From a virus (Duplodnaviria > Caudoviricetes), in the IMG/VR virus record IMGVR_UViG_3300017996_000002, positions 1 through 51,923 of that record: DNA of 51,923 bases. One strand, written 5' to 3'. The stretch's first letter is position 1, and each line of letters starts with the position of its first letter. This document shows, piece after piece, positions 3,923 to 18,655 of the stretch. The notes beneath the pieces were generated by a model. It searched no databases. It was not told the DNA's origin and worked only from the letters and a program-made list of their open reading frames with translations. A program made the translations under genes and the position numbers.

Positions 3923-4129
3923 CTAGTCAAAGCTTTCCGACGTCGGCGCCCGGACGTTATCGAGTTTTGGCGGGCCGCTGATCTCGACGCTGACGGTGAG
4001 CCCGTCGACCGCACCCGCCCTGTTGACGAGTAGTCCGCCGCTGATACGCGGCACGCATTTGTGCGGCGCGTCGAACTCCTCGGCGATCTCAGCCTTGAAG
4101 GCGTCGAGCTTGTCGTCACGCTCGCTCAC
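3923..4129 (-). CDS. Hypothetical protein (68 aa)
   Basis: Its start overlaps the stop of the putative terS gene. Confidence 0.5.
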   Translation of the reverse strand: MSERDDKLDAFKAEIAEEFDAPHKCVPRISGGLLVNRAGAVDGLTVSVEISGPPKLDNVRAPTSESFD

Positions 4130-4837: not shown

Positions 4838-5326
4838 ATGTCTAAGTTAGATGAACTTGATGCGAAATACGCTAGAGAACTTCGCGACGCCGCGCGTGAG
4901 GCCGAGCGCCCCGCGCGTGAGGCCGCCGCCCGGGCGATACTAGAAGCTAAGTTAGAGAGCAAAGCCCGGCGTGATAAAGCGCGGGCCGCCCGTGACGCGG
5001 CTCGCGCTCGGCGCGAACCTGTCTTTGATTCCGGATTCCCTTGCAAACGCGGGCACAACTCGGCGCGCTATACGTGCAACGGCGGCTGCCTTGAATGCCT
5101 CGGAATAGCAATCCCTAAGATTGACGATCACGTGCAAGATCGCATTGCAATTGAATGGATCGTGCGAAAAGGATTGACTGCTCCGATCGGTGCCCCGCTA
5201 TTGAACTATTTAACAGAATGCTTTGTGACGTATTTCGATCATCACGGCGATAAGAACGTGCTCGAACGTCACAAACTCGAAGCGATGCGCGCCACGGGAA
5301 AGCCCTACGGCGTCGACGTCGGCTAA
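4838..5326 (+). CDS. Hypothetical protein with coiled coil and Cys/His zinc-binding motif
   Basis: PCKRGHNSARYTCNGGCLEC motif; AAGGA RBS. Confidence 0.7.
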   Translation: MSKLDELDAKYARELRDAAREAERPAREAAARAILEAKLESKARRDKARAARDAARARREPVFDSGFPCKRGHNSARYTCNGGCLECLGIAIPKIDDHVQDRIAIEWIVRKGLTAPIGAPLLNYLTECFVTYFDHHGDKNVLERHKLEAMRATGKPYGVDVG

Positions 5327-5520
5327 TGGCTCAGAAGATCAGGCGCCGGGCTCGGATAGGCGGCCGGCGCCGTCCCCTGAAGCCGTGGGAAGCCGCCAGG
5401 CTGGCGCGCAACTCCCGCGAGGTGTGCCGGTGCGACTGTATGCCGTTCCCGCACCGTGCGGGCTCACGTTCCGTTGTGCGGATAGGCCGATCGTCTATTA
5501 CAGTCAAATGTGACGCTTGA
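5326..5520 (+). CDS. Small basic protein with CxCxxxxFPHR motif
   Basis: TAATG overlap with the upstream gene; CRCDCMPFPHRAGS. Confidence 0.55.
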   Translation: MAQKIRRRARIGGRRRPLKPWEAARLARNSREVCRCDCMPFPHRAGSRSVVRIGRSSITVKCDA

Positions 5521-5571
5521 CGCGGCGCACATCCGGTAGGGTTGGACCTTAGCCCAAGGATATCCCCCACC

Positions 5572-5694
5572 ATGAACCGCCCGCCCATCCTATGCAATTG
5601 CGCGCCTGACGCTCAGCACCATGAATACGACATATGGAACGAACACGACGGCGAGGGCTCACTCGAAGGCTCGGGCGACGGGGATGATTATTAG
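5572..5694 (+). CDS. Small acidic hypothetical protein (40 aa)
   Basis: MNRPPILCNCAPDAQHHEYDIWNEHDGEGSLEGSGDGDDY, with AAGGA upstream. Confidence 0.4.
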   Translation: MNRPPILCNCAPDAQHHEYDIWNEHDGEGSLEGSGDGDDY

Positions 5695-5696
5695 AA

Positions 5697-5739
5697 TGTG
5701 ACGTGGGTCTCGACGCCTCGGTCAGTTATGCGCGATAAT
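5697..5739 (+). promoter_or_regulatory. Class II CRP-like promoter with overlapping CGAC-N6-GTCA operator
   Basis: TGTGA-cgtggg-TCTCG, 21 nt, GATAAT. Operator at 5711-5724. Confidence 0.7.
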
Positions 5740-5772
5740 ACTCGCGTCTAAACAATCGAGGAGCTTTTACAA

Positions 5773-6576
5773 ATGTTTAAATTACCAATCGACCTGAACG
5801 CCATCAAGGCGCTCGAATTGTTCGCCGGCAAGGACGACGTATTGTTCGCCGGCAAGGACGACGAGCGGCACTACTTGAACGGCATCTGGGTCTGCGCAAT
5901 CGATGCGCGCACCGTGCGCGTGGTCGCGACAGACGGGTATACCTTGGCCGAGCATCGCGTCGCGCTGCAGGAGGGCGGCATGGAGTTCACCGGTGGATTC
6001 CCTCAGTCGGGGATCATCCCGCGCGACGCGTTCAAAGCACTCAAGGGCTTTACCGTCTTATCAATCGAGCCGGGCTCCAAGGGCACATTCGACCCGCCAC
6101 GCTACTCAATCAATGACGGCGAGCGCGTCGGCAAACTGATCGACGGCACGTTCCCTGACATCGATCGGATATGGCCGTCGTCTGTCAGTCTCGAAGCAAC
6201 ACATTTGGATCCGGACTACGTCGCACGCGTCGGCAAGGCGGCGCACCTGCTTGCCGGTAAGGGCCTGCTCCGCTCGGCCTTTTTTCAGAACGGGTCGAAC
6301 CCCACGGTGTTCAAAGTGCGCGACGACTTCGCGGGCCTCATCATGCCCGAGCGCACGGACAAGGCGAGCATGCCTGAGTGGACGCCGACCAAGTCGCTCG
6401 GAGATCCGATCCGCGAGGCCGCCAAAGAGACAGTGATTGCGCTGCGCGATCTGTATGACTGCGCCGCCGCCGGCATTCTGCCGAAGTCGACCGACGATGT
6501 TCTTAGCAACGCGCGTAAGTTACTGACGCGGATCGGGATCATGACGCGTGACGACATCGCGGGCATTAACAACTGA
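5773..6576 (+). CDS. DNA polymerase III beta-clamp-like protein
   Basis: The motifs DxRHYLNGI, VVATDGYTL and IDGTFPDIDRIWP echo DnaN (D.RY.LNG, VATDGHRL, IDG.FPDY.RV.P). GAGGAG RBS. Confidence 0.75.
   Translation: MFKLPIDLNAIKALELFAGKDDVLFAGKDDERHYLNGIWVCAIDARTVRVVATDGYTLAEHRVALQEGGMEFTGGFPQSGIIPRDAFKALKGFTVLSIEPGSKGTFDPPRYSINDGERVGKLIDGTFPDIDRIWPSSVSLEATHLDPDYVARVGKAAHLLAGKGLLRSAFFQNGSNPTVFKVRDDFAGLIMPERTDKASMPEWTPTKSLGDPIREAAKETVIALRDLYDCAAAGILPKSTDDVLSNARKLLTRIGIMTRDDIAGINN
5817..5863 (+). repeat. 24-nt in-frame tandem duplication
   Basis: ATTGTTCGCCGGCAAGGACGACG occurs twice and encodes LFAGKDD-V-LFAGKDD. Confidence 0.9.
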
Positions 6577-11813: not shown

Positions 11814-12695
11814 ATGCAAATTATGCTTGACACAACGACATATGAGCACCCGGCCGCGCTGCGCGCCCTGGCGAAGTTCATTGAAGCGATAGCCGCAATT
11901 GAAGACGCGACACCCGCCGCTGTCTCTGCTAGCGGTATCGTAGAGATCAAGGACACAAAGGCCGCCGCTGAGTTCTTCGGGACGGACGGCAAGGCCGATA
12001 CGGTCGCGAGAGAGACGGCGACCATTCTCGACTTTAAGACGTCGGACAGTCTACCGCCCGACCACTTCGAAAAAACTGGCACGGCCGCGCCGCCCGTGAT
12101 TCCGCCGCCGTCGGCCGGCCTCTATACGTCGAGCGGTACAACGGCGGCGATTCCGCTACCGCCTGTGCCCGTGCCTGTGCCTGTGCCCGTGCCGCCGTCT
12201 GCATTGCCGCCCATCCCGAAGCCGCCCGGCGAAGCGCCCGCGCCTTTGTTCGACTTGGCTGGCGTTCAGTATGACGCAAATCTGCACAGTTCGACGAAGT
12301 CGAAGACGATCGATGGCCGATGGAAAGCACGCCGCAACCGAGGCGGGTCGCAGATTCCGCCGGCCGGCGCCGTCACAGTTGTTGCTGCGCCCCCGATCCC
12401 GCCGCCGCCCGCTTCGGTGAGTCCCCAATCCGACGACGGGGACGACATCGACGTCGAGGATGATTCCGGCGAACCTACTGGACTACCGGCGGGGTCGGCG
12501 CCGATCGGCATGACAACTGCCGCGGATTTTCTGAAGTTCATTGATAAAATCACCGAAGGGCTAAACGCCAGTACGGTGACACAAGCGAAGATTGCGGAAG
12601 TATTGACGCGATTCTCGATCGATTCACTGTTCTCGCTGAGCGCGCGGCCGGAACTTATCGCGGGTGTTTCCGCTGCCTTTGGGTTCGCGCCGTGA
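11814..12695 (+). CDS. Proline-rich conserved phage protein
   Basis: D.AGVQYDANLHSSTKSKTIDGRWKARR motif between Pro-rich linkers; GGAG RBS. Confidence 0.75.
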   Translation: MQIMLDTTTYEHPAALRALAKFIEAIAAIEDATPAAVSASGIVEIKDTKAAAEFFGTDGKADTVARETATILDFKTSDSLPPDHFEKTGTAAPPVIPPPSAGLYTSSGTTAAIPLPPVPVPVPVPVPPSALPPIPKPPGEAPAPLFDLAGVQYDANLHSSTKSKTIDGRWKARRNRGGSQIPPAGAVTVVAAPPIPPPPASVSPQSDDGDDIDVEDDSGEPTGLPAGSAPIGMTTAADFLKFIDKITEGLNASTVTQAKIAEVLTRFSIDSLFSLSARPELIAGVSAAFGFAP

Positions 12696-13663: not shown

Positions 13664-13855
13664 ATGTACGCATTTATCATGATGGTTGCGGTTCTTCAGA
13701 GCAACGGCGAATACGCCACGTTCAGCGAGACTTTTAGCGATCCCGAGGCATGCATCGCTAAAATCGAAGTCGTCAAGCATATGGATTTGTCGGCGACCGA
13801 TGCGAAAGCGCACGTAGTATACGCGGAATGCGTCCGCGTCGAGGCGGCCCCGTGA
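13664..13855 (+). CDS. Small hypothetical protein with hydrophobic N-terminus and two Cys
   Basis: AGGAG RBS; F.D.EAC...AECV pattern. Confidence 0.6.
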   Translation: MYAFIMMVAVLQSNGEYATFSETFSDPEACIAKIEVVKHMDLSATDAKAHVVYAECVRVEAAP

Positions 13856-15033
13856 GCACCGGACACGCACCTGTTCCGCCTTCGTTTCTCGATACCGTGG
13901 TGCATTGTCACGGGTCGCTGGCCCTCGCGCGAGCGAACCCGCAGCCCGATACGGACGCCACGCGCGAGGGCAACGTTGCGCACAAGGTCGCGATGCTGTA
14001 TGCGCTCGCTAGCACGCGAGACGGCATAGCGCCCGAATCTAAATGCTGCGTACTCCCGAAGCTCGGCGACATCATCGACGGAATCCGCGTCGACGCCGAA
14101 ATGGTCGGCGGCGCGAAACTTTACGCCGAGGCGCTCGAAGGCTTCGCCGGGAACCCCGAACAAACAATCCCCATTCACCGAATACATCCGGGTCTAATCG
14201 ATCCTGAAACCGGCGAGATCACGGAAATTTGTTTCGGCACGCCCGACTTTTGGCAATACCGCCATGAGACAAAAACGCTGCGAATTACGGATTATAAATA
14301 CGGACACTTGTACGTCGAAGTTTACGAGAACTATCAGCTAATAGCGTATGCGGCTGGCGCGCTTGAATTGCTCGCGAAAACGGGCGTACTCGAAGCCGAT
14401 ATCATCGTCGAGTTTCTGATCGTGCAACCCCGCTGCTATAGCGCCGATTCGCCCGTGCGCGAGTGGGTTACGTCGGCGTCGAATCTGCGGACGTACATAA
14501 ACGAAGCCGCGCAAGCCGTGGCCGACGCATTGGCGCCGAACCCGAAGACGAAAGCCGGGACGCATTGCCTATTCTGCCCCGCTCGCGGGATTTGCAAGAC
14601 GGCCCACAAGGCGAGCACGGCAATCCTTGAATACGCCGGCACGGTCGAGGCGATGTCCCAAAATCCGCACGAGGTAGGGTTGCGACTCAACCTGATTAAT
14701 GCCGCGATCACGATTCTAAAGGGCGTCGGCACGGGGCTTGAGGAGCAAGCTATGCAGATGATCCGGCGTGGCGCCGTCGTGCCGTGGTTCAAGATTGGGC
14801 ATAGTACGCCGCGCGAAGTATGGACAAAGCCGGCGGCGACTGTCGCAACGCTCAGCGTACTTGCCGGCAAAAAGATAGCGCTGACAGAACAAGCCTACGC
14901 TATGACACCGAAACAAGCGATTAAAGCGGGTATACCCGAGGCGCTTGTGCGGATGTTCAGTACGCAACCGCACGGCAAGGCACGACTCGAAGCTGAGAGC
15001 GACGCAAGTCTAGCAAGAGTTTTTAAACGTTGA
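13852..15033 (+). CDS. DUF2800-family Cas4-like PD-(D/E)XK exonuclease
   Basis: HA.VPPS...CHGS, EGNVAH, FGTPD, ITDYKYG, QLIAYA, IVQPR, HCLFCPARGIC. The GTG start overlaps the upstream stop. Confidence 0.88.
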   Translation: MSTGHAPVPPSFLDTVVHCHGSLALARANPQPDTDATREGNVAHKVAMLYALASTRDGIAPESKCCVLPKLGDIIDGIRVDAEMVGGAKLYAEALEGFAGNPEQTIPIHRIHPGLIDPETGEITEICFGTPDFWQYRHETKTLRITDYKYGHLYVEVYENYQLIAYAAGALELLAKTGVLEADIIVEFLIVQPRCYSADSPVREWVTSASNLRTYINEAAQAVADALAPNPKTKAGTHCLFCPARGICKTAHKASTAILEYAGTVEAMSQNPHEVGLRLNLINAAITILKGVGTGLEEQAMQMIRRGAVVPWFKIGHSTPREVWTKPAATVATLSVLAGKKIALTEQAYAMTPKQAIKAGIPEALVRMFSTQPHGKARLEAESDASLARVFKR

Positions 15034-15096: not shown

Positions 15097-16038
15097 ATGG
15101 CACGAAGCAACGCCGCAAGGCAAGTAGTATTTCCCGGTAGTCGTTTTTTGATGGGCTCAATGTACAAAGCGTCGGACAAGGACGCGGACGGTAAGCCCCG
15201 AATCGTCAAGACAGGACAGAACGCCGGACAGCCCACGCAACAGTTCTTTTTCGCGTTCGGGATTCCCAAAACGCCGGGCTTCACGCACTGGGCGCATGAG
15301 ACTTGGGGTGCTGAAATTTGGGCGGTAGGCAACACCTGTTTCCCTAAGATCGCCGAGGGTGATCAATTCTCATGGAAAATCGTGGACGGCGATTCGCCGA
15401 AGCCAAACAAGAAGGGCATTGCACCGAATAAGCGCGAAGGCTACCCGGGCCATTGGGTCGTATCGTGCGCCTCAACATTCGCGCCGAAGATTCGCACCGC
15501 GGACAACAGCGCAGCCATTCTTGAGCCCGATGTGTGCATGCCCGGAGACTTTATCCAAGTGGCTGCCACAGTCGACGGCAACGCCTCGACACAGAACCCG
15601 GGCGTGTATATAAATCACGACTTCGTTCTGTACCTCGGGCCAAGCGCCGACGGTCGTATCGTATCCGGAGCTGACCCGTCCGCTGTCAATTGGGCGGGTG
15701 CTGCCGCTACGTCCGCGGCTATCATGTCCAAGATCGTCGCAACGCCCGTTGCGCCCGGTGTGGCAGCCGTTCCGGCGCCCCGCCCCGCCGCGCCCGCGGC
15801 CGTCCCTGCCGTTCCGAGCGTGCCGACCGTCCCGGTAGCCGCCCCCACGGCCGTAGCCCCGTCCCCGGGGTTCCTGGCGCCAGCCGGCGCGGTCCCGCGC
15901 CCGCCCGCGCCCGCTGCACCCGTGCATACTTTGACGGCGCTCGCGGCCGGTCATTCGTATGAGACGCTGATCTCTCAGGGATGGACCGATGCGCTGTTGA
16001 TTCAGAACGGGCTTATGCTCGCTGCGGGGGGTGTTTAG
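15097..16038 (+). CDS. Single-stranded DNA-binding protein (DUF2815-like) with Pro/Ala-rich linker
   Basis: It lies between the DUF2800 nuclease and the polymerase. Motifs FSWKIVDGDS, EGYPGHWV, PGVYIN, and C-terminal YETLISQGWTDALLIQNG. Confidence 0.75.
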   Translation: MARSNAARQVVFPGSRFLMGSMYKASDKDADGKPRIVKTGQNAGQPTQQFFFAFGIPKTPGFTHWAHETWGAEIWAVGNTCFPKIAEGDQFSWKIVDGDSPKPNKKGIAPNKREGYPGHWVVSCASTFAPKIRTADNSAAILEPDVCMPGDFIQVAATVDGNASTQNPGVYINHDFVLYLGPSADGRIVSGADPSAVNWAGAAATSAAIMSKIVATPVAPGVAAVPAPRPAAPAAVPAVPSVPTVPVAAPTAVAPSPGFLAPAGAVPRPPAPAAPVHTLTALAAGHSYETLISQGWTDALLIQNGLMLAAGGV

Positions 16039-16117
16039 CCTTTCGGCGTTAGTCGCCGAGATACATCGCCGGGCCGCCGGGTCCGGTGATAGTATCGACG
16101 ACGATATCCCGTTTTGA
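16031..16117 (+). CDS. Short +1-frame ORF ending in the SSB C-terminal tip DDDIPF (frameshift extension or standalone 28-aa peptide)
   Basis: GTG TTT AGC ... ATC GAC GAC GAT ATC CCG TTT TGA = VFSLSALVAEIHRRAAGSGDSIDDDIPF. Confidence 0.55.
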   Translation: MFSLSALVAEIHRRAAGSGDSIDDDIPF

Positions 16118-16254
16118 TCCATGTTCCCGCCCGCGCGCCAAACGCCCCGCTAGCCCCGAGGGCAAAATGTGACACAGCTTAAAAACTGCAACATATCGGG
16201 GGATGAGGAAAGGTCACGGTAAGGCGCGCGGGAAATGGGGCGAGGGGGAACGCC

Positions 16255-16425
16255 GTGATCTTTCGAATTATTTACGAAATCGATGTAGATACCATGCAAT
16301 ACCGGATCAAATTTAAGGCTGAGGGACTATCCGACGAGGAAAGCTACGCCGAATGTCTTCGTGCGCTTGCGACCCTCGAAGCGCATTTGCTCTACGGGAA
16401 ACCGGCCGCCGCGAGCGTCCATTGA
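16255..16425 (+). CDS. Small hypothetical protein (56 aa)
   Basis: GTG start after GAGGGGG. It ends just before the polymerase start. Confidence 0.5.
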   Translation: MIFRIIYEIDVDTMQYRIKFKAEGLSDEESYAECLRALATLEAHLLYGKPAAASVH

Positions 16426-16429
16426 CGTG

Positions 16430-18655
16430 ATGATTCCAACGTTCGATTTTGAGTTCCGCGGCGACGCCGGATACGTATACGATTACGCCGGCCGCAAATG
16501 GGGACCGTTGCCCGGATTTTCGAAACAGAAAAAGGGGTTGCCCGCAGTCGGCTTGCATGCGTTCGTCGAGCATTACTCTTTTCGACCATTGCTCCTCGCG
16601 TACGATTTGACGCCCGAGCTAGGCGGCGCCACGGTGAAGCAATGGGAACTCGGGCAAGACTTCGACGTCTTGCAGCCGCTATTCGCCCACCTACGGGCCG
16701 GCGGTTTGATAGAAGGGCATTACGTCGCGACCGAGCGCGTTGTCTGGAATCGCTATTGCGTCCCCGTGTACGACTGGCCGCCCATCACAATCGAACAGAC
16801 GCGGTGCAGTTCGGTGAAGTCGAGGGCTGCCGGATACCCTAGCTCGCTCGGCGATGCAACAGCCGTGCTTAAAACGCCGATACAAAAAGATCCGGAGGGC
16901 AAACGGCTGATGAAAATATTTTCAATGCCGCACAAGTGGACGAAGAAAATACCGCGGACGCACACGCAACCGCGCGAAGCGCCCGAGGAGTGGGCGCGGT
17001 ACAAATCGTACAACGTCGACGATATTGTGTCAGCGTCGCAACTATCCGCGCGTTGCCCGGATCTCACGCCGTCCGAATTGCGCCTATGGTTCCTCGACCA
17101 ACAGATCAATGATCGCGGAATGGCTGTCGATCGCAAGGGCGTCAAGGATTGCATCGCAGTTGTAAATCAGGCTTACGCGAAGTACGGCGCCGAACACATC
17201 GCGCTAACCGGCGGCATTAAACCGACCGAACTTTTACAGATGAAAAAGTGGCTCGCGGCGCGCGGCGTTCATATGTACGATATGACCGAAAAGACAATCG
17301 ACGAGACGGCCGACAAGCTTGGCGCCGCGACGTCCCTATCGCCCGAGCAAGCCGGAGCGTTGCGCGCATTGCGCATCCGCCAAGTGCTCGCGAGCGCCAG
17401 CGTTAAGAAGCTTTTCGCCCTCGACGCTATGACGGCGCGCGATGGGCGCGTGCGCGAAATGTATATGATGCATGCCACGCACCACGGCCGGACCGGCGGA
17501 TATGGCCCGCAGCCAGCGAATTTGTATAAGGGGGAATGGCACACGCCCGAGGAGGTTAACGCCGCGCTTACCGTGCTGGCGTCGCGTTCGCTCGATACCG
17601 TCGAACGAGCGTACCCGAAATTATCGGCGCTCGACGTGGTCAACAATTGTTTGCGCTCGCTGTTCGTCGCGGCTCCCGGGCATACGCTGATCTCGTCGGA
17701 TTATTCGGCGATTGAGGGCGTCGTGCTCGCGGCCCTCGCGGGTGAGTCGTGGGTACTCGAAGTGTTCCACACGCACGGGATGATATACGAGGCGCAAATT
17801 GCGCGCATGATCGGCGTCCCGTTTGAAGATTTCGTAAAGCATCGGGTCGATACCGGCGGCACGGCGACGTACGGCCCTGATGGTAAGCTGATCGGTATCA
17901 AGGGCGGCAAGCATCACCCGTTACGCCAACAGGGCAAGCTCGCGGTCCTGTCCGGCGGCTACGCGTCATGGATCAACGGCTGGAAAAAATTCGGGGCGGA
18001 CGAATATTATGATGGGGACCGCGAGATCAAGGCCGCGATTATGTCATACCGAAATTCTGTCCCGGCTATCGTCGAATTTTGGGGCGGACAGACGCGCGAT
18101 AAGTTTCGCAACAGCGAACGCGAGGAACTTTACGGGCTCGAAGGCGCCGCCATAGCGGCCGTGTTGAAACCCGGCGAGTGCTTCCGAGTGGGCGCCATAG
18201 CCCTCCAGATGGGAGGGGACACCCTTTACATGCAATTGCCGAGTGGTCGGACGATTCCGTATCATTCGCCGCGCCTACGCCCCGCCACGCGGGATTACGC
18301 GAGCCCGTGGGAATTGGCCCTAACATACGAGGGCTGGAATTCGAACCCCGAAAAAGGGCCGCCCGCTTGGATCGAAATGGACTTGTACGGCGGCGTGTTG
18401 ACTCAGAACGCGACCGGGGGCACGGCGCGCGATATCCAGATGCACGGCATGGAAAACGTCACGGCCGCCGGGTACCCGATCGTCATGCACACCTATGACG
18501 AGACCGTGGCCGAGGTTCCGCTAATCGAGACGCTGTCCGCGAAGTCCGTCGCAGGGCTCGAACAAGGGCTAAACGACTTGCCGGCGTACGCGAAGGGCTG
18601 GCCCATATTCGCTAAGGGCGGATGGCTCGGCCCGCGCTATGGTAAATGGGATTGA
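16430..18655 (+). CDS. Family A DNA polymerase with 3'-5' exonuclease domain
   Basis: Exo FDFEF and YNVDD; INDRG; HGR..G.GPQPANL; motif A SSDYSAIE; motif B RQQGKLAVLSGGY; motif C VMHTYDE. Confidence 0.93.
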   Translation: MIPTFDFEFRGDAGYVYDYAGRKWGPLPGFSKQKKGLPAVGLHAFVEHYSFRPLLLAYDLTPELGGATVKQWELGQDFDVLQPLFAHLRAGGLIEGHYVATERVVWNRYCVPVYDWPPITIEQTRCSSVKSRAAGYPSSLGDATAVLKTPIQKDPEGKRLMKIFSMPHKWTKKIPRTHTQPREAPEEWARYKSYNVDDIVSASQLSARCPDLTPSELRLWFLDQQINDRGMAVDRKGVKDCIAVVNQAYAKYGAEHIALTGGIKPTELLQMKKWLAARGVHMYDMTEKTIDETADKLGAATSLSPEQAGALRALRIRQVLASASVKKLFALDAMTARDGRVREMYMMHATHHGRTGGYGPQPANLYKGEWHTPEEVNAALTVLASRSLDTVERAYPKLSALDVVNNCLRSLFVAAPGHTLISSDYSAIEGVVLAALAGESWVLEVFHTHGMIYEAQIARMIGVPFEDFVKHRVDTGGTATYGPDGKLIGIKGGKHHPLRQQGKLAVLSGGYASWINGWKKFGADEYYDGDREIKAAIMSYRNSVPAIVEFWGGQTRDKFRNSEREELYGLEGAAIAAVLKPGECFRVGAIALQMGGDTLYMQLPSGRTIPYHSPRLRPATRDYASPWELALTYEGWNSNPEKGPPAWIEMDLYGGVLTQNATGGTARDIQMHGMENVTAAGYPIVMHTYDETVAEVPLIETLSAKSVAGLEQGLNDLPAYAKGWPIFAKGGWLGPRYGKWD

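Follow-up and report, generated by a model that had tools for sequence, protein, structure and literature searches.

The bacterial protein SSB, which binds single-stranded DNA, carries at its C-terminus a short acidic tip that docks ExoI, RecQ, PriA and the chi subunit of DNA polymerase III (Pol III), and the acidic tail of T7 gp2.5 binds the phage's own polymerase and helicase. The subject of this report is the gene of a Gp2.5-type SSB in IMG/VR record IMGVR_UViG_3300017996_000002, a complete 51,923-bp record of an uncultured virus with direct terminal repeats and a G+C content of 58% (the whole of this stretch is referred to below as the window). Directly behind the stop codon of this gene, the +1 frame encodes a short tail ending in DDDIPF, the same sequence as the bacterial tip. 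Judging from the sequence, the probable route by which a part of the SSB molecules would acquire this tail is a programmed +1 frameshift of the ribosome at the SSB stop.

Several described systems are close to this arrangement. The shift site of prfB, the gene of release factor 2 (RF2), is given as AGGGGG-UAU-CUU-UGA-C in a published account (PMC12421855). The SSB locus shares with prfB the position of the shift, here a proposed one, on the last sense codon before an in-frame stop, a G-rich upstream stretch resembling a Shine-Dalgarno (SD) sequence, a C after the stop and a candidate U-rich re-pairing site, and its relatives in the CTT clade described below also share CUU_U and the 3-nt spacing, in their case after GGUG. 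It differs in its P-site codon (GUU), in its stop (UAG, and any stop in relatives) and in a G run lying 1 nt from the codon; moreover, the shift would extend a complete protein and is not required for the main product, and no release-factor autoregulation is involved. A first-pass annotation, made from the sequence alone, had stated that the site mirrors prfB codon for codon. This holds only in part, the G run being 2 nt closer, the codon GUU instead of CUU and the stop UAG instead of UGA. The same annotation called the shift release-factor-sensitive, which is acceptable in a general sense and not as RF2 autoregulation, since the identity of the stop is not conserved (UAG here, all three stops in relatives) and the site is thus not an RF2 feedback device. 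To our knowledge, utilised prfB-type +1 frameshifts are very rare outside prfB.

A +1 shift on CCC before a stop is documented for Listeria phage tail genes and for Escherichia coli pheL (PMC5009743). The tail-shaft gene of Listeria phages PSA, A118 and A500 resembles the present case in being a phage gene with a C-terminally extended minor isoform made by a +1 shift on the codon before the stop, and the nearest tail-bearing relative of the window in the collections searched (L002) has CCC_UAA_C where the Listeria phages and pheL have CCC_UGA. The Listeria products, however, are structural proteins without an SSB tip, whereas a replication protein is concerned here. In dnaX, a -1 shift on A_AAA_AAG similarly gives two isoforms of one replication gene, tau and gamma, which differ in the C-terminal partner-binding part, and Cys-rich -1 tips found behind heptamers in relatives of the window recall this system. 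The dnaX shift removes interaction domains, whereas here a tip would be added or swapped in, and the window would use a +1 shift. With T7 gp2.5 and the bacterial SSB C-terminal tip (SSB-Ct), the locus has in common the gp2.5 fold class and an acidic tail with Pro-Phe. Their tail is in frame on every molecule, whereas here it would be reachable only by recoding, and the main 0-frame product has another C-terminal end, a small helical domain. A recent preprint (bioRxiv 10.64898/2026.04.29.721553) describes both Bas52_0087, a phage SSB-like protein whose FDDDIPF is in frame, and the binding of the SSB tip to host partners such as SbcB. No report of recoding in an SSB gene was found by full-text literature searches and term look-ups, which covered part of the Atkins 2016 review and the PRFect paper.

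The SSB gene of the window ends with the codons GCG GGG GGT GTT TAG, followed by C. This end, the run of six Gs (G6; 16026-16031), the stop (TAG, 16036-16038), a GTG at 16031 and the +1-frame DDDIPF tail are all located where the first-pass annotation had placed them. The features of the locus are as follows (aa, amino acids; RF1, release factor 1).

15097..16038, + strand: Gp2.5-type SSB gene, 0 frame, 313 aa (from phrog_7011, AlphaFold model and Foldseek)
16026..16032, + strand: internal SD-like stretch GGGGGGU directly 5' of the last sense codon (from the predicted anti-SD duplex)
16033..16039, + strand: proposed +1 shift site GUU UAG C, comprising the last sense codon, a stop read by RF1 only and a C giving a weak context (from the sequence and the sites of relatives)
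16037..16117, + strand: +1-frame tail of 26 codons (SLSALVAEIHRRAAGSGDSIDDDIPF) plus TGA (from translation; positionally homologous tails in L002 and L084)
16041..16094, + strand: two stable RNA hairpins in the tail-coding region, from 3 nt past the stop (from folding against shuffles)
16097..16114, + strand: DDDIPF, identical to the bacterial SSB C-terminal tip (from translation)

The +1 frame is open from 16001, forming a 38-codon open reading frame (ORF) that reads ...GVFSLSALVAEIHRRAAGSGDSIDDDIPF and terminates with TGA at 16115-16117. Its C-terminus, ...GSGDSIDDDIPF followed by this TGA, has DDDIPF at the extreme end, as in SSB-Ct, and the stop at the shift point is followed by C (GTT TAG C), as in prfB. 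The predicted frameshift product is 339 aa long. In the six frames of the window, DDDIPF plus a stop is expected about 1e-5 times; it occurred in none of 300 Markov-simulated windows, and the tip is the sole acidic ...PF-stop ORF end across the six frames, so the arrangement is not due to chance.

The 0-frame product is, by its predicted fold, a Gp2.5-type SSB of the phrog_7011/DUF2815 fold, and would accordingly be expected to bind single-stranded DNA. It matched phrog_7011 ("Gp2.5-like ssDNA binding protein") with an E-value of 4.5e-48 over residues 7-308. The AlphaFold model (mean pLDDT 80.9) comprises an OB-fold core (residues ~1-200), a disordered Pro/Ala-rich linker (~200-280) and a small two-helix C-terminal domain (~285-305). 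Foldseek searches with this model retrieved the DUF2815 phage proteins 4jg2 (4.3e-9) and 4klk (6.2e-9), the SSB of phage Enc34 (5odl, 1.1e-8) and T7 gp2.5 (1je5, 3.9e-5), and the A1 profile also matched 4jg2 (E 1e-4). The protein does not belong with the homotetrameric bacterial SSBs, whose structures appeared in the Foldseek list only at E > 0.08, and a Pfam scan of the ORF gave no family at E 0.01, including the bacterial SSB OB domain. The in-frame acidic tail with a terminal aromatic residue that is usual in the gp2.5 class is absent from the 0-frame product, which ends ...LMLAAGGV. Among the best 120 of the 179 homologues above threshold, all stop within a few residues of a conserved ...GW[TN]D....G.M motif, and none has a ...PF tip or an acidic ...F tail; from these sequences, the 0-frame stop is evidently the normal end of the family.

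As the window was assembled from a metagenome and homopolymers are error-prone, the tail might be out of frame through an erroneous indel in the G6 run, introduced in sequencing or assembly, and in frame in the true gene, as the first-pass annotation had allowed. The site is, however, reproduced in independent assemblies: Logan contigs of three other sequencing runs span the G6 run and the TAG without gaps (X2, 15697-16156; X3, 15600-16440; X4, 15864-16083), that of X3 with two substitutions away from the site, and in a further run, X9, the site is outside the coverage. At the consensus level the indel is thereby refuted. The agreement of the 0-frame end with 120 of 120 homologues (the best 120 of 179) and the same offset in relatives without homopolymers also stand against an indel, and this explanation is extremely improbable. 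The runs holding the window are for the most part peat metagenomes. Run X3, from peat, also contains short contigs that match parts of the SSB 3' region (window 15884-16017) at only about 88%, indicating that diverged relatives co-occur in this sample.

The contigs bear differently on another possibility, that slippage in the G6 run at the level of DNA or transcription (G6 to G5) makes the tipped isoform in the manner of a contingency locus. A one-base deletion in 16026-16031 would read ...AAGVFSLSAL... on to DDDIPF, and contigs drop rare variants, so that a minority G5 form is compatible with them. Homopolymer contingency loci have been reported in phages (bioRxiv 10.1101/2025.10.21.683753). 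On the other hand, G6 was present in all three other assemblies, and the junctions of relatives have no homopolymer (GTG GGT CCC TAA; GTG NNN CTT TAA). A run of six is, in general, short for efficient polymerase slippage, and we regard this explanation as unlikely.

The arrangement was then followed through related loci, which were fetched from viral, metagenome and genome collections by alignment-based searches; a single-protein locus search in viral contigs had found nothing, whereas the alignment-based searches succeeded. The 189 loci obtained included 180 with the SSB stop and 150 nt downstream, 153 of them non-redundant, and 148 were left after five cultured phages had been set aside. ORFs ending in [IVLMFEAC]PF were counted as having a tip if two or more of the preceding six residues were D, E or C. 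Such tips were concentrated at the SSB 3' end, with 26 (in 26 loci) among 1788 ORF ends in the zone that extends from 450 nt upstream to 300 nt downstream of the SSB stop, against 11 among 11004 elsewhere on the same strand and one among 15684 on the opposite strand. The 26 tips occur in four arrangements: in the +1 frame just past the stop (7 loci), in frame behind the stop (2), in frame without a stop (1) and in the -1 frame within the linker (16). A later scan gave 79 new locus ids, of which five were skipped (no stop in the fetched stretch), 56 duplicated older loci and 18 were new, adding five +1 loci and one embedded locus. No alternative-frame tip was found in the five cultured distant relatives (Klebsiella JD001, Vibrio vB_VchM-138, Shewanella SppYZU01, Pseudomonas MR14 and Acinetobacter Scuro).

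In total, 12 distinct loci of two clades have, immediately after the SSB stop, a +1-frame tail ending in D[DE]IP[FY] (DADIPY in L212), so that the arrangement, the offset and the tip are conserved. This is what the first-pass annotation had proposed to look for in homologues. The last sense codon is CTT in ten, CCC in one and GTT in one, with a stretch complementary to the anti-SD upstream and C or G after the stop. In the clade with the HMV[KR]L ending, all ten distinct loci (L157, L167, L182, L183, L184, L191, L192, L195, L196, which is identical to L200, and L212) read CA[CT] ATG GTG NNN CTT plus a stop, giving CUU_U with a GGUG placed upstream at a distance of exactly 3 nt. Three of them use TAA as the stop, two TAG and five TGA, and the +1 tails of 17-32 residues end in D[DE]IPF, or DADIPY as above. 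In the four CTT-clade genes counted, which have 14 to 21 Leu codons, CTT is used just 1 to 3 times. In seven of the ten CTT loci, including two whose tails have no start codon, the +1 frame is closed by a TGA two codons ahead of the junction, which pins the entry into the tail to the last two codons.

The window's own clade is supported by an SH-aLRT value of 98 in a quick tree for which SH-aLRT is the only support measure. Within it, L002 ends GTG GGT CCC TAA C, the +1 frame opening four codons upstream, and L084 (~1220-1303) carries a tail homologous to that of L002 in frame behind TGA C, with no start codon within. The last 11 tail codons of L002 and L084, compared by eye, differ by four synonymous and no non-synonymous changes. 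L084 (after GCG TGA C) and L189 (after GGT TAG C), the latter on a very long branch of the quick tree, are the two loci with the tip in frame behind the stop, and this sequence arrangement suggests stop-codon readthrough or a reassigned stop. L164 is the sole locus of the 148 with an in-frame tip and no stop; its SSB ends ...GWDDATLIAHGLARMTLDDNIPF, and the position of the tip after the same C-terminal domain means that the extended architecture exists as an ordinary protein. The L164 contig is binned in a Pseudobdellovibrionaceae metagenome-assembled genome. A further tip-bearing protein of a related phage was observed in L076 (~5040-6104), where a separate 352-aa ORF 2.2 kb downstream of the SSB gene ends in frame with ...DFDYDNEIPF.

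These tails also bear on the suggestion, made in the first-pass annotation, that a separate 28-aa peptide starts at GTG 16031, here by re-initiation after the TAG five bases downstream, and acts as a free SSB-tip decoy competing with host SSB for its partners. The GTG does overlap the stop region, and several CTT-clade tails have an internal ATG after a purine-rich stretch. However, no spacer separates the G run from the GTG, neither ATG, GTG nor TTG occurs in the tails of L183, L184 and L084 (those of L183 and L184 differ by three synonymous and two conservative changes), and the sole candidate start in L002 would lose the conserved Cys/His part. A separate peptide would have no need of a conserved CTT or CCC last codon or of a fixed +1 offset, and in L164 the tip is fused in frame. 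Such a peptide would not explain the relatives whose tails have no start codon, and it is unlikely in the window. The first proposal of that annotation, a +1 frameshift giving SSB with and without the tip, is favoured by the 12 +1 loci, their shift-prone last codons and the tails without start codons.

The signals around the junction were compared between the first seven +1 loci and 139 other loci. CTT or CCC is the last codon in six of the seven and in none of the 139 tail-less loci, and C follows the stop in six of seven against 36 of 139. The anti-SD duplex predicted for the 15 nt before the last codon is -5.1 to -10.3 kcal/mol in the +1 loci, against a mean of -3.16 (standard deviation 1.67). 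The value of the window, -10.3 kcal/mol as predicted with a 16S rRNA 3' end, is the strongest of the 146 loci and also exceeds those of 30 gene starts and 150 internal control sites of the window. The 60 nt past the stop fold in the window with a minimum free energy of -34.4 kcal/mol, against -19.4 +/- 2.7 kcal/mol for shuffles (z -5.6; 0 of 200 as stable). Post-stop folding is also strong in L002 (z -3.8) and not in L157 (z 0.28) or L084 (z -0.54).

We infer from this anatomy that the shift occurs, that it is taken with low efficiency and that GUU rather than the GGG run is the slip codon. Most ribosomes would stop at UAG (16036-38) and release the 313-aa SSB with its usual C-terminal domain and no acidic tip, while a minority would pause on GUU-UAG-C. 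The pause would be favoured by the weak stop context and by the pairing of G6U with the anti-SD at a very short distance; the hairpins 3 nt downstream may also contribute, acting as a 3' stimulator or pause element. Peptidyl-tRNA-Val would re-pair one base forward on UUU, AGC would be read next, and the 26 residues added, ending in DDDIPF-COOH, would give the 339-aa form as a minor isoform. In this way, one gene would provide two SSB isoforms, the minor one with the motif that bacterial SSB uses to dock its partners. The same tail would be entered, with a slightly different junction, if tRNA-Gly slipped on the G run or if one G were lost in DNA or RNA. The identity of the tip with bacterial SSB-Ct points to host SSB partners as its possible targets, and the T7 gp2.5 tail is an equally possible model, by which the tip may bind the phage's own polymerase or helicase.

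A number of observations weigh against a frameshift at this site. The re-pairing of GUU to UUU keeps two of three pairs, with the first position lost, and is less favourable than that of CUU or CCC; the G run ends 1 nt before GUU, against 3 nt in prfB, so that only four Gs are in the prfB register; and the use of SD sequences by the window's genes is moderate. No other GTT-plus-stop locus with a tail was found among the relatives, and three tail-less loci (L036, L045 and L067) likewise end in GTT plus a stop. The ten CTT loci form one clade and thus represent few independent events, and several of their tails have an internal ATG with a possible SD that could yield a peptide of 14-17 aa. In the window's own clade, the case at the DNA level comprises three tail-bearing loci, the closest homologues (P0002-P0008; 62-77% identity; Logan and JGI contigs) having been compared as protein only, and L005 and L082 have no tail at all. 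There is no RNA run among the listed sequencing runs that hold the stretch.

The absence of the tail from L005 and L082 indicates that it is dispensable, as might be expected of a non-functional remnant, that is, an ancestral in-frame tail which a frameshift mutation separated from the SSB frame and which is now decaying, its likeness to prfB being coincidental. The in-frame tip of L164 and the loss from the window tail of Cys/His residues present in L002 and L084 are in line with such an origin. Against decay, the 26-codon frame is open with DDDIPF and its stop intact, and the tip is kept, with synonymous changes, in tails down to about 50% SSB identity. A remnant would also leave unexplained the CTT and CCC last codons, the exceptional anti-SD match and the strict correspondence of frame to signal, and we consider it improbable. 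The SSB stop of L082 is immediately followed by a conserved intergenic hairpin, and the tail therefore behaves as an optional insert.

The correspondence of frame to signal extends to the tips embedded in linkers. The 16 tips embedded at the SSB 3' end are without exception in the -1 frame. So are eight of the 11 tips found elsewhere on the same strand; these form a Cys-rich module in a second gene, located upstream of the exonuclease gene, where the module occupies the Pro/Ala linker. The embedded sequences follow the pattern [RAK]P[FY], CxxC, about 10-15 residues, CxxC, [IVE]PF and a stop, and most of the alternative ORFs lack a start codon. The Pro codon of the embedded tip varies in its third base, altering the overlapping 0-frame residue (P, H or L), which indicates that it is the alternative frame that is under selection. 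A canonical X_XXY_YYZ heptamer lies 20-45 codons before the tip end in 15 of 23 loci checked (15 SSB-linker loci, leaving out L022, the module of which is identical to that of L017, and the eight upstream-gene loci), while about 0.19 per locus are expected from the family's own rate. The heptamers are mostly C_CCT_TTT/G and A_AAC_CCT, and motifs of the C_CC.U_UU.Y type are listed among the most efficient -1 motifs in E. coli (PMC4066793). The frame thus appears to match the mechanism: embedded tips are all -1 and mostly behind heptamers, and the +1 tips at the stop junction follow shift-prone codons.

The second gene with the -1 Cys-rich ...CxxC[IVE]PF module was observed in L003 (1347-1520), L010, L011, L043, L062, L099, L121 and L163. 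It contains a motif resembling GLPWDGRIH and ends in a sequence similar to ...RPDL.P.VA, with C_CCT_TTT/A in five of the eight. Its homologue in the window (11814-12695) has no such module, and Pfam gave nothing significant for the Cys-rich tip modules or the upstream-gene homologue.

The SSB gene of the window lies between a DUF2800/PD-(D/E)XK exonuclease gene (13828-15033) and a family A DNA polymerase gene. The polymerase ORF is listed as 16361-18655, from GTG 16361; its start is more likely ATG 16430, five bases after the stop of a 56-aa ORF, since the homologues align from there. This 56-aa ORF (MIFRIIYEIDVDT...; 16255-16425) gave no significant Pfam match and is conserved as a protein in L082 (MKFKLTYEIDLKT...), so that it is probably a real small gene. 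Between it and the tail stop, at 16123-16235, there is a conserved long-range hairpin (GTTCCCGCCCGCGCGCC ... GGCGCGCGGGAA), which is also present in L002 (~3994-4068), where the inner stem shows a compensatory change (GCTCGA/TCGAGC), and in L082 just past the SSB stop. After the tails of L182, L183 and L184 there are related motifs, TCCCGCCC. The hairpin might serve as a regulatory RNA, as a DNA element or as a site of processing; no Rfam family was above threshold in 15800-16600, where the sole match, CRISPR-DR, was at chance level (E 0.76). No tRNA genes were detected in the window, and no near-identical DNA match to it was found among GenBank phages.

We tentatively propose, as a possibility that goes beyond the window, that these phages use the SSB-type tip as a portable module, kept deliberately out of frame and relocated between sites, with selection acting on recoding itself. 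The tip may be bare (DDDIPF) or fused to a zinc-ribbon-like CxxC...CxxC element of about 30 residues. It may be placed at the SSB end, behind a +1 shifty stop or a leaky stop, in the SSB linker, by a -1 shift on X_XXY_YYZ, or in the linker of the second replication-module gene, also by -1. Recoding may serve to keep the tip-bearing isoform sub-stoichiometric, and possible reasons for having few tips are that full tipping would sequester host partners, inhibit the protein's own DNA binding or trigger an SSB-sensing defence.

Gene callers miss all of these tails, and current annotations of this SSB family therefore have no putative partner-binding end. If the frameshift is real, CUU, CCC or GUU plus any stop would form a natural series of shift sites for the study of +1 efficiency. 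Some phages would then make two SSB species from one gene, of which one alone addresses the host's SSB partners, and the presence of the tip on a minority of molecules might evade a defence that senses phage SSB or its tip. This would bear on how phages borrow or block the repair and replication enzymes of their hosts.

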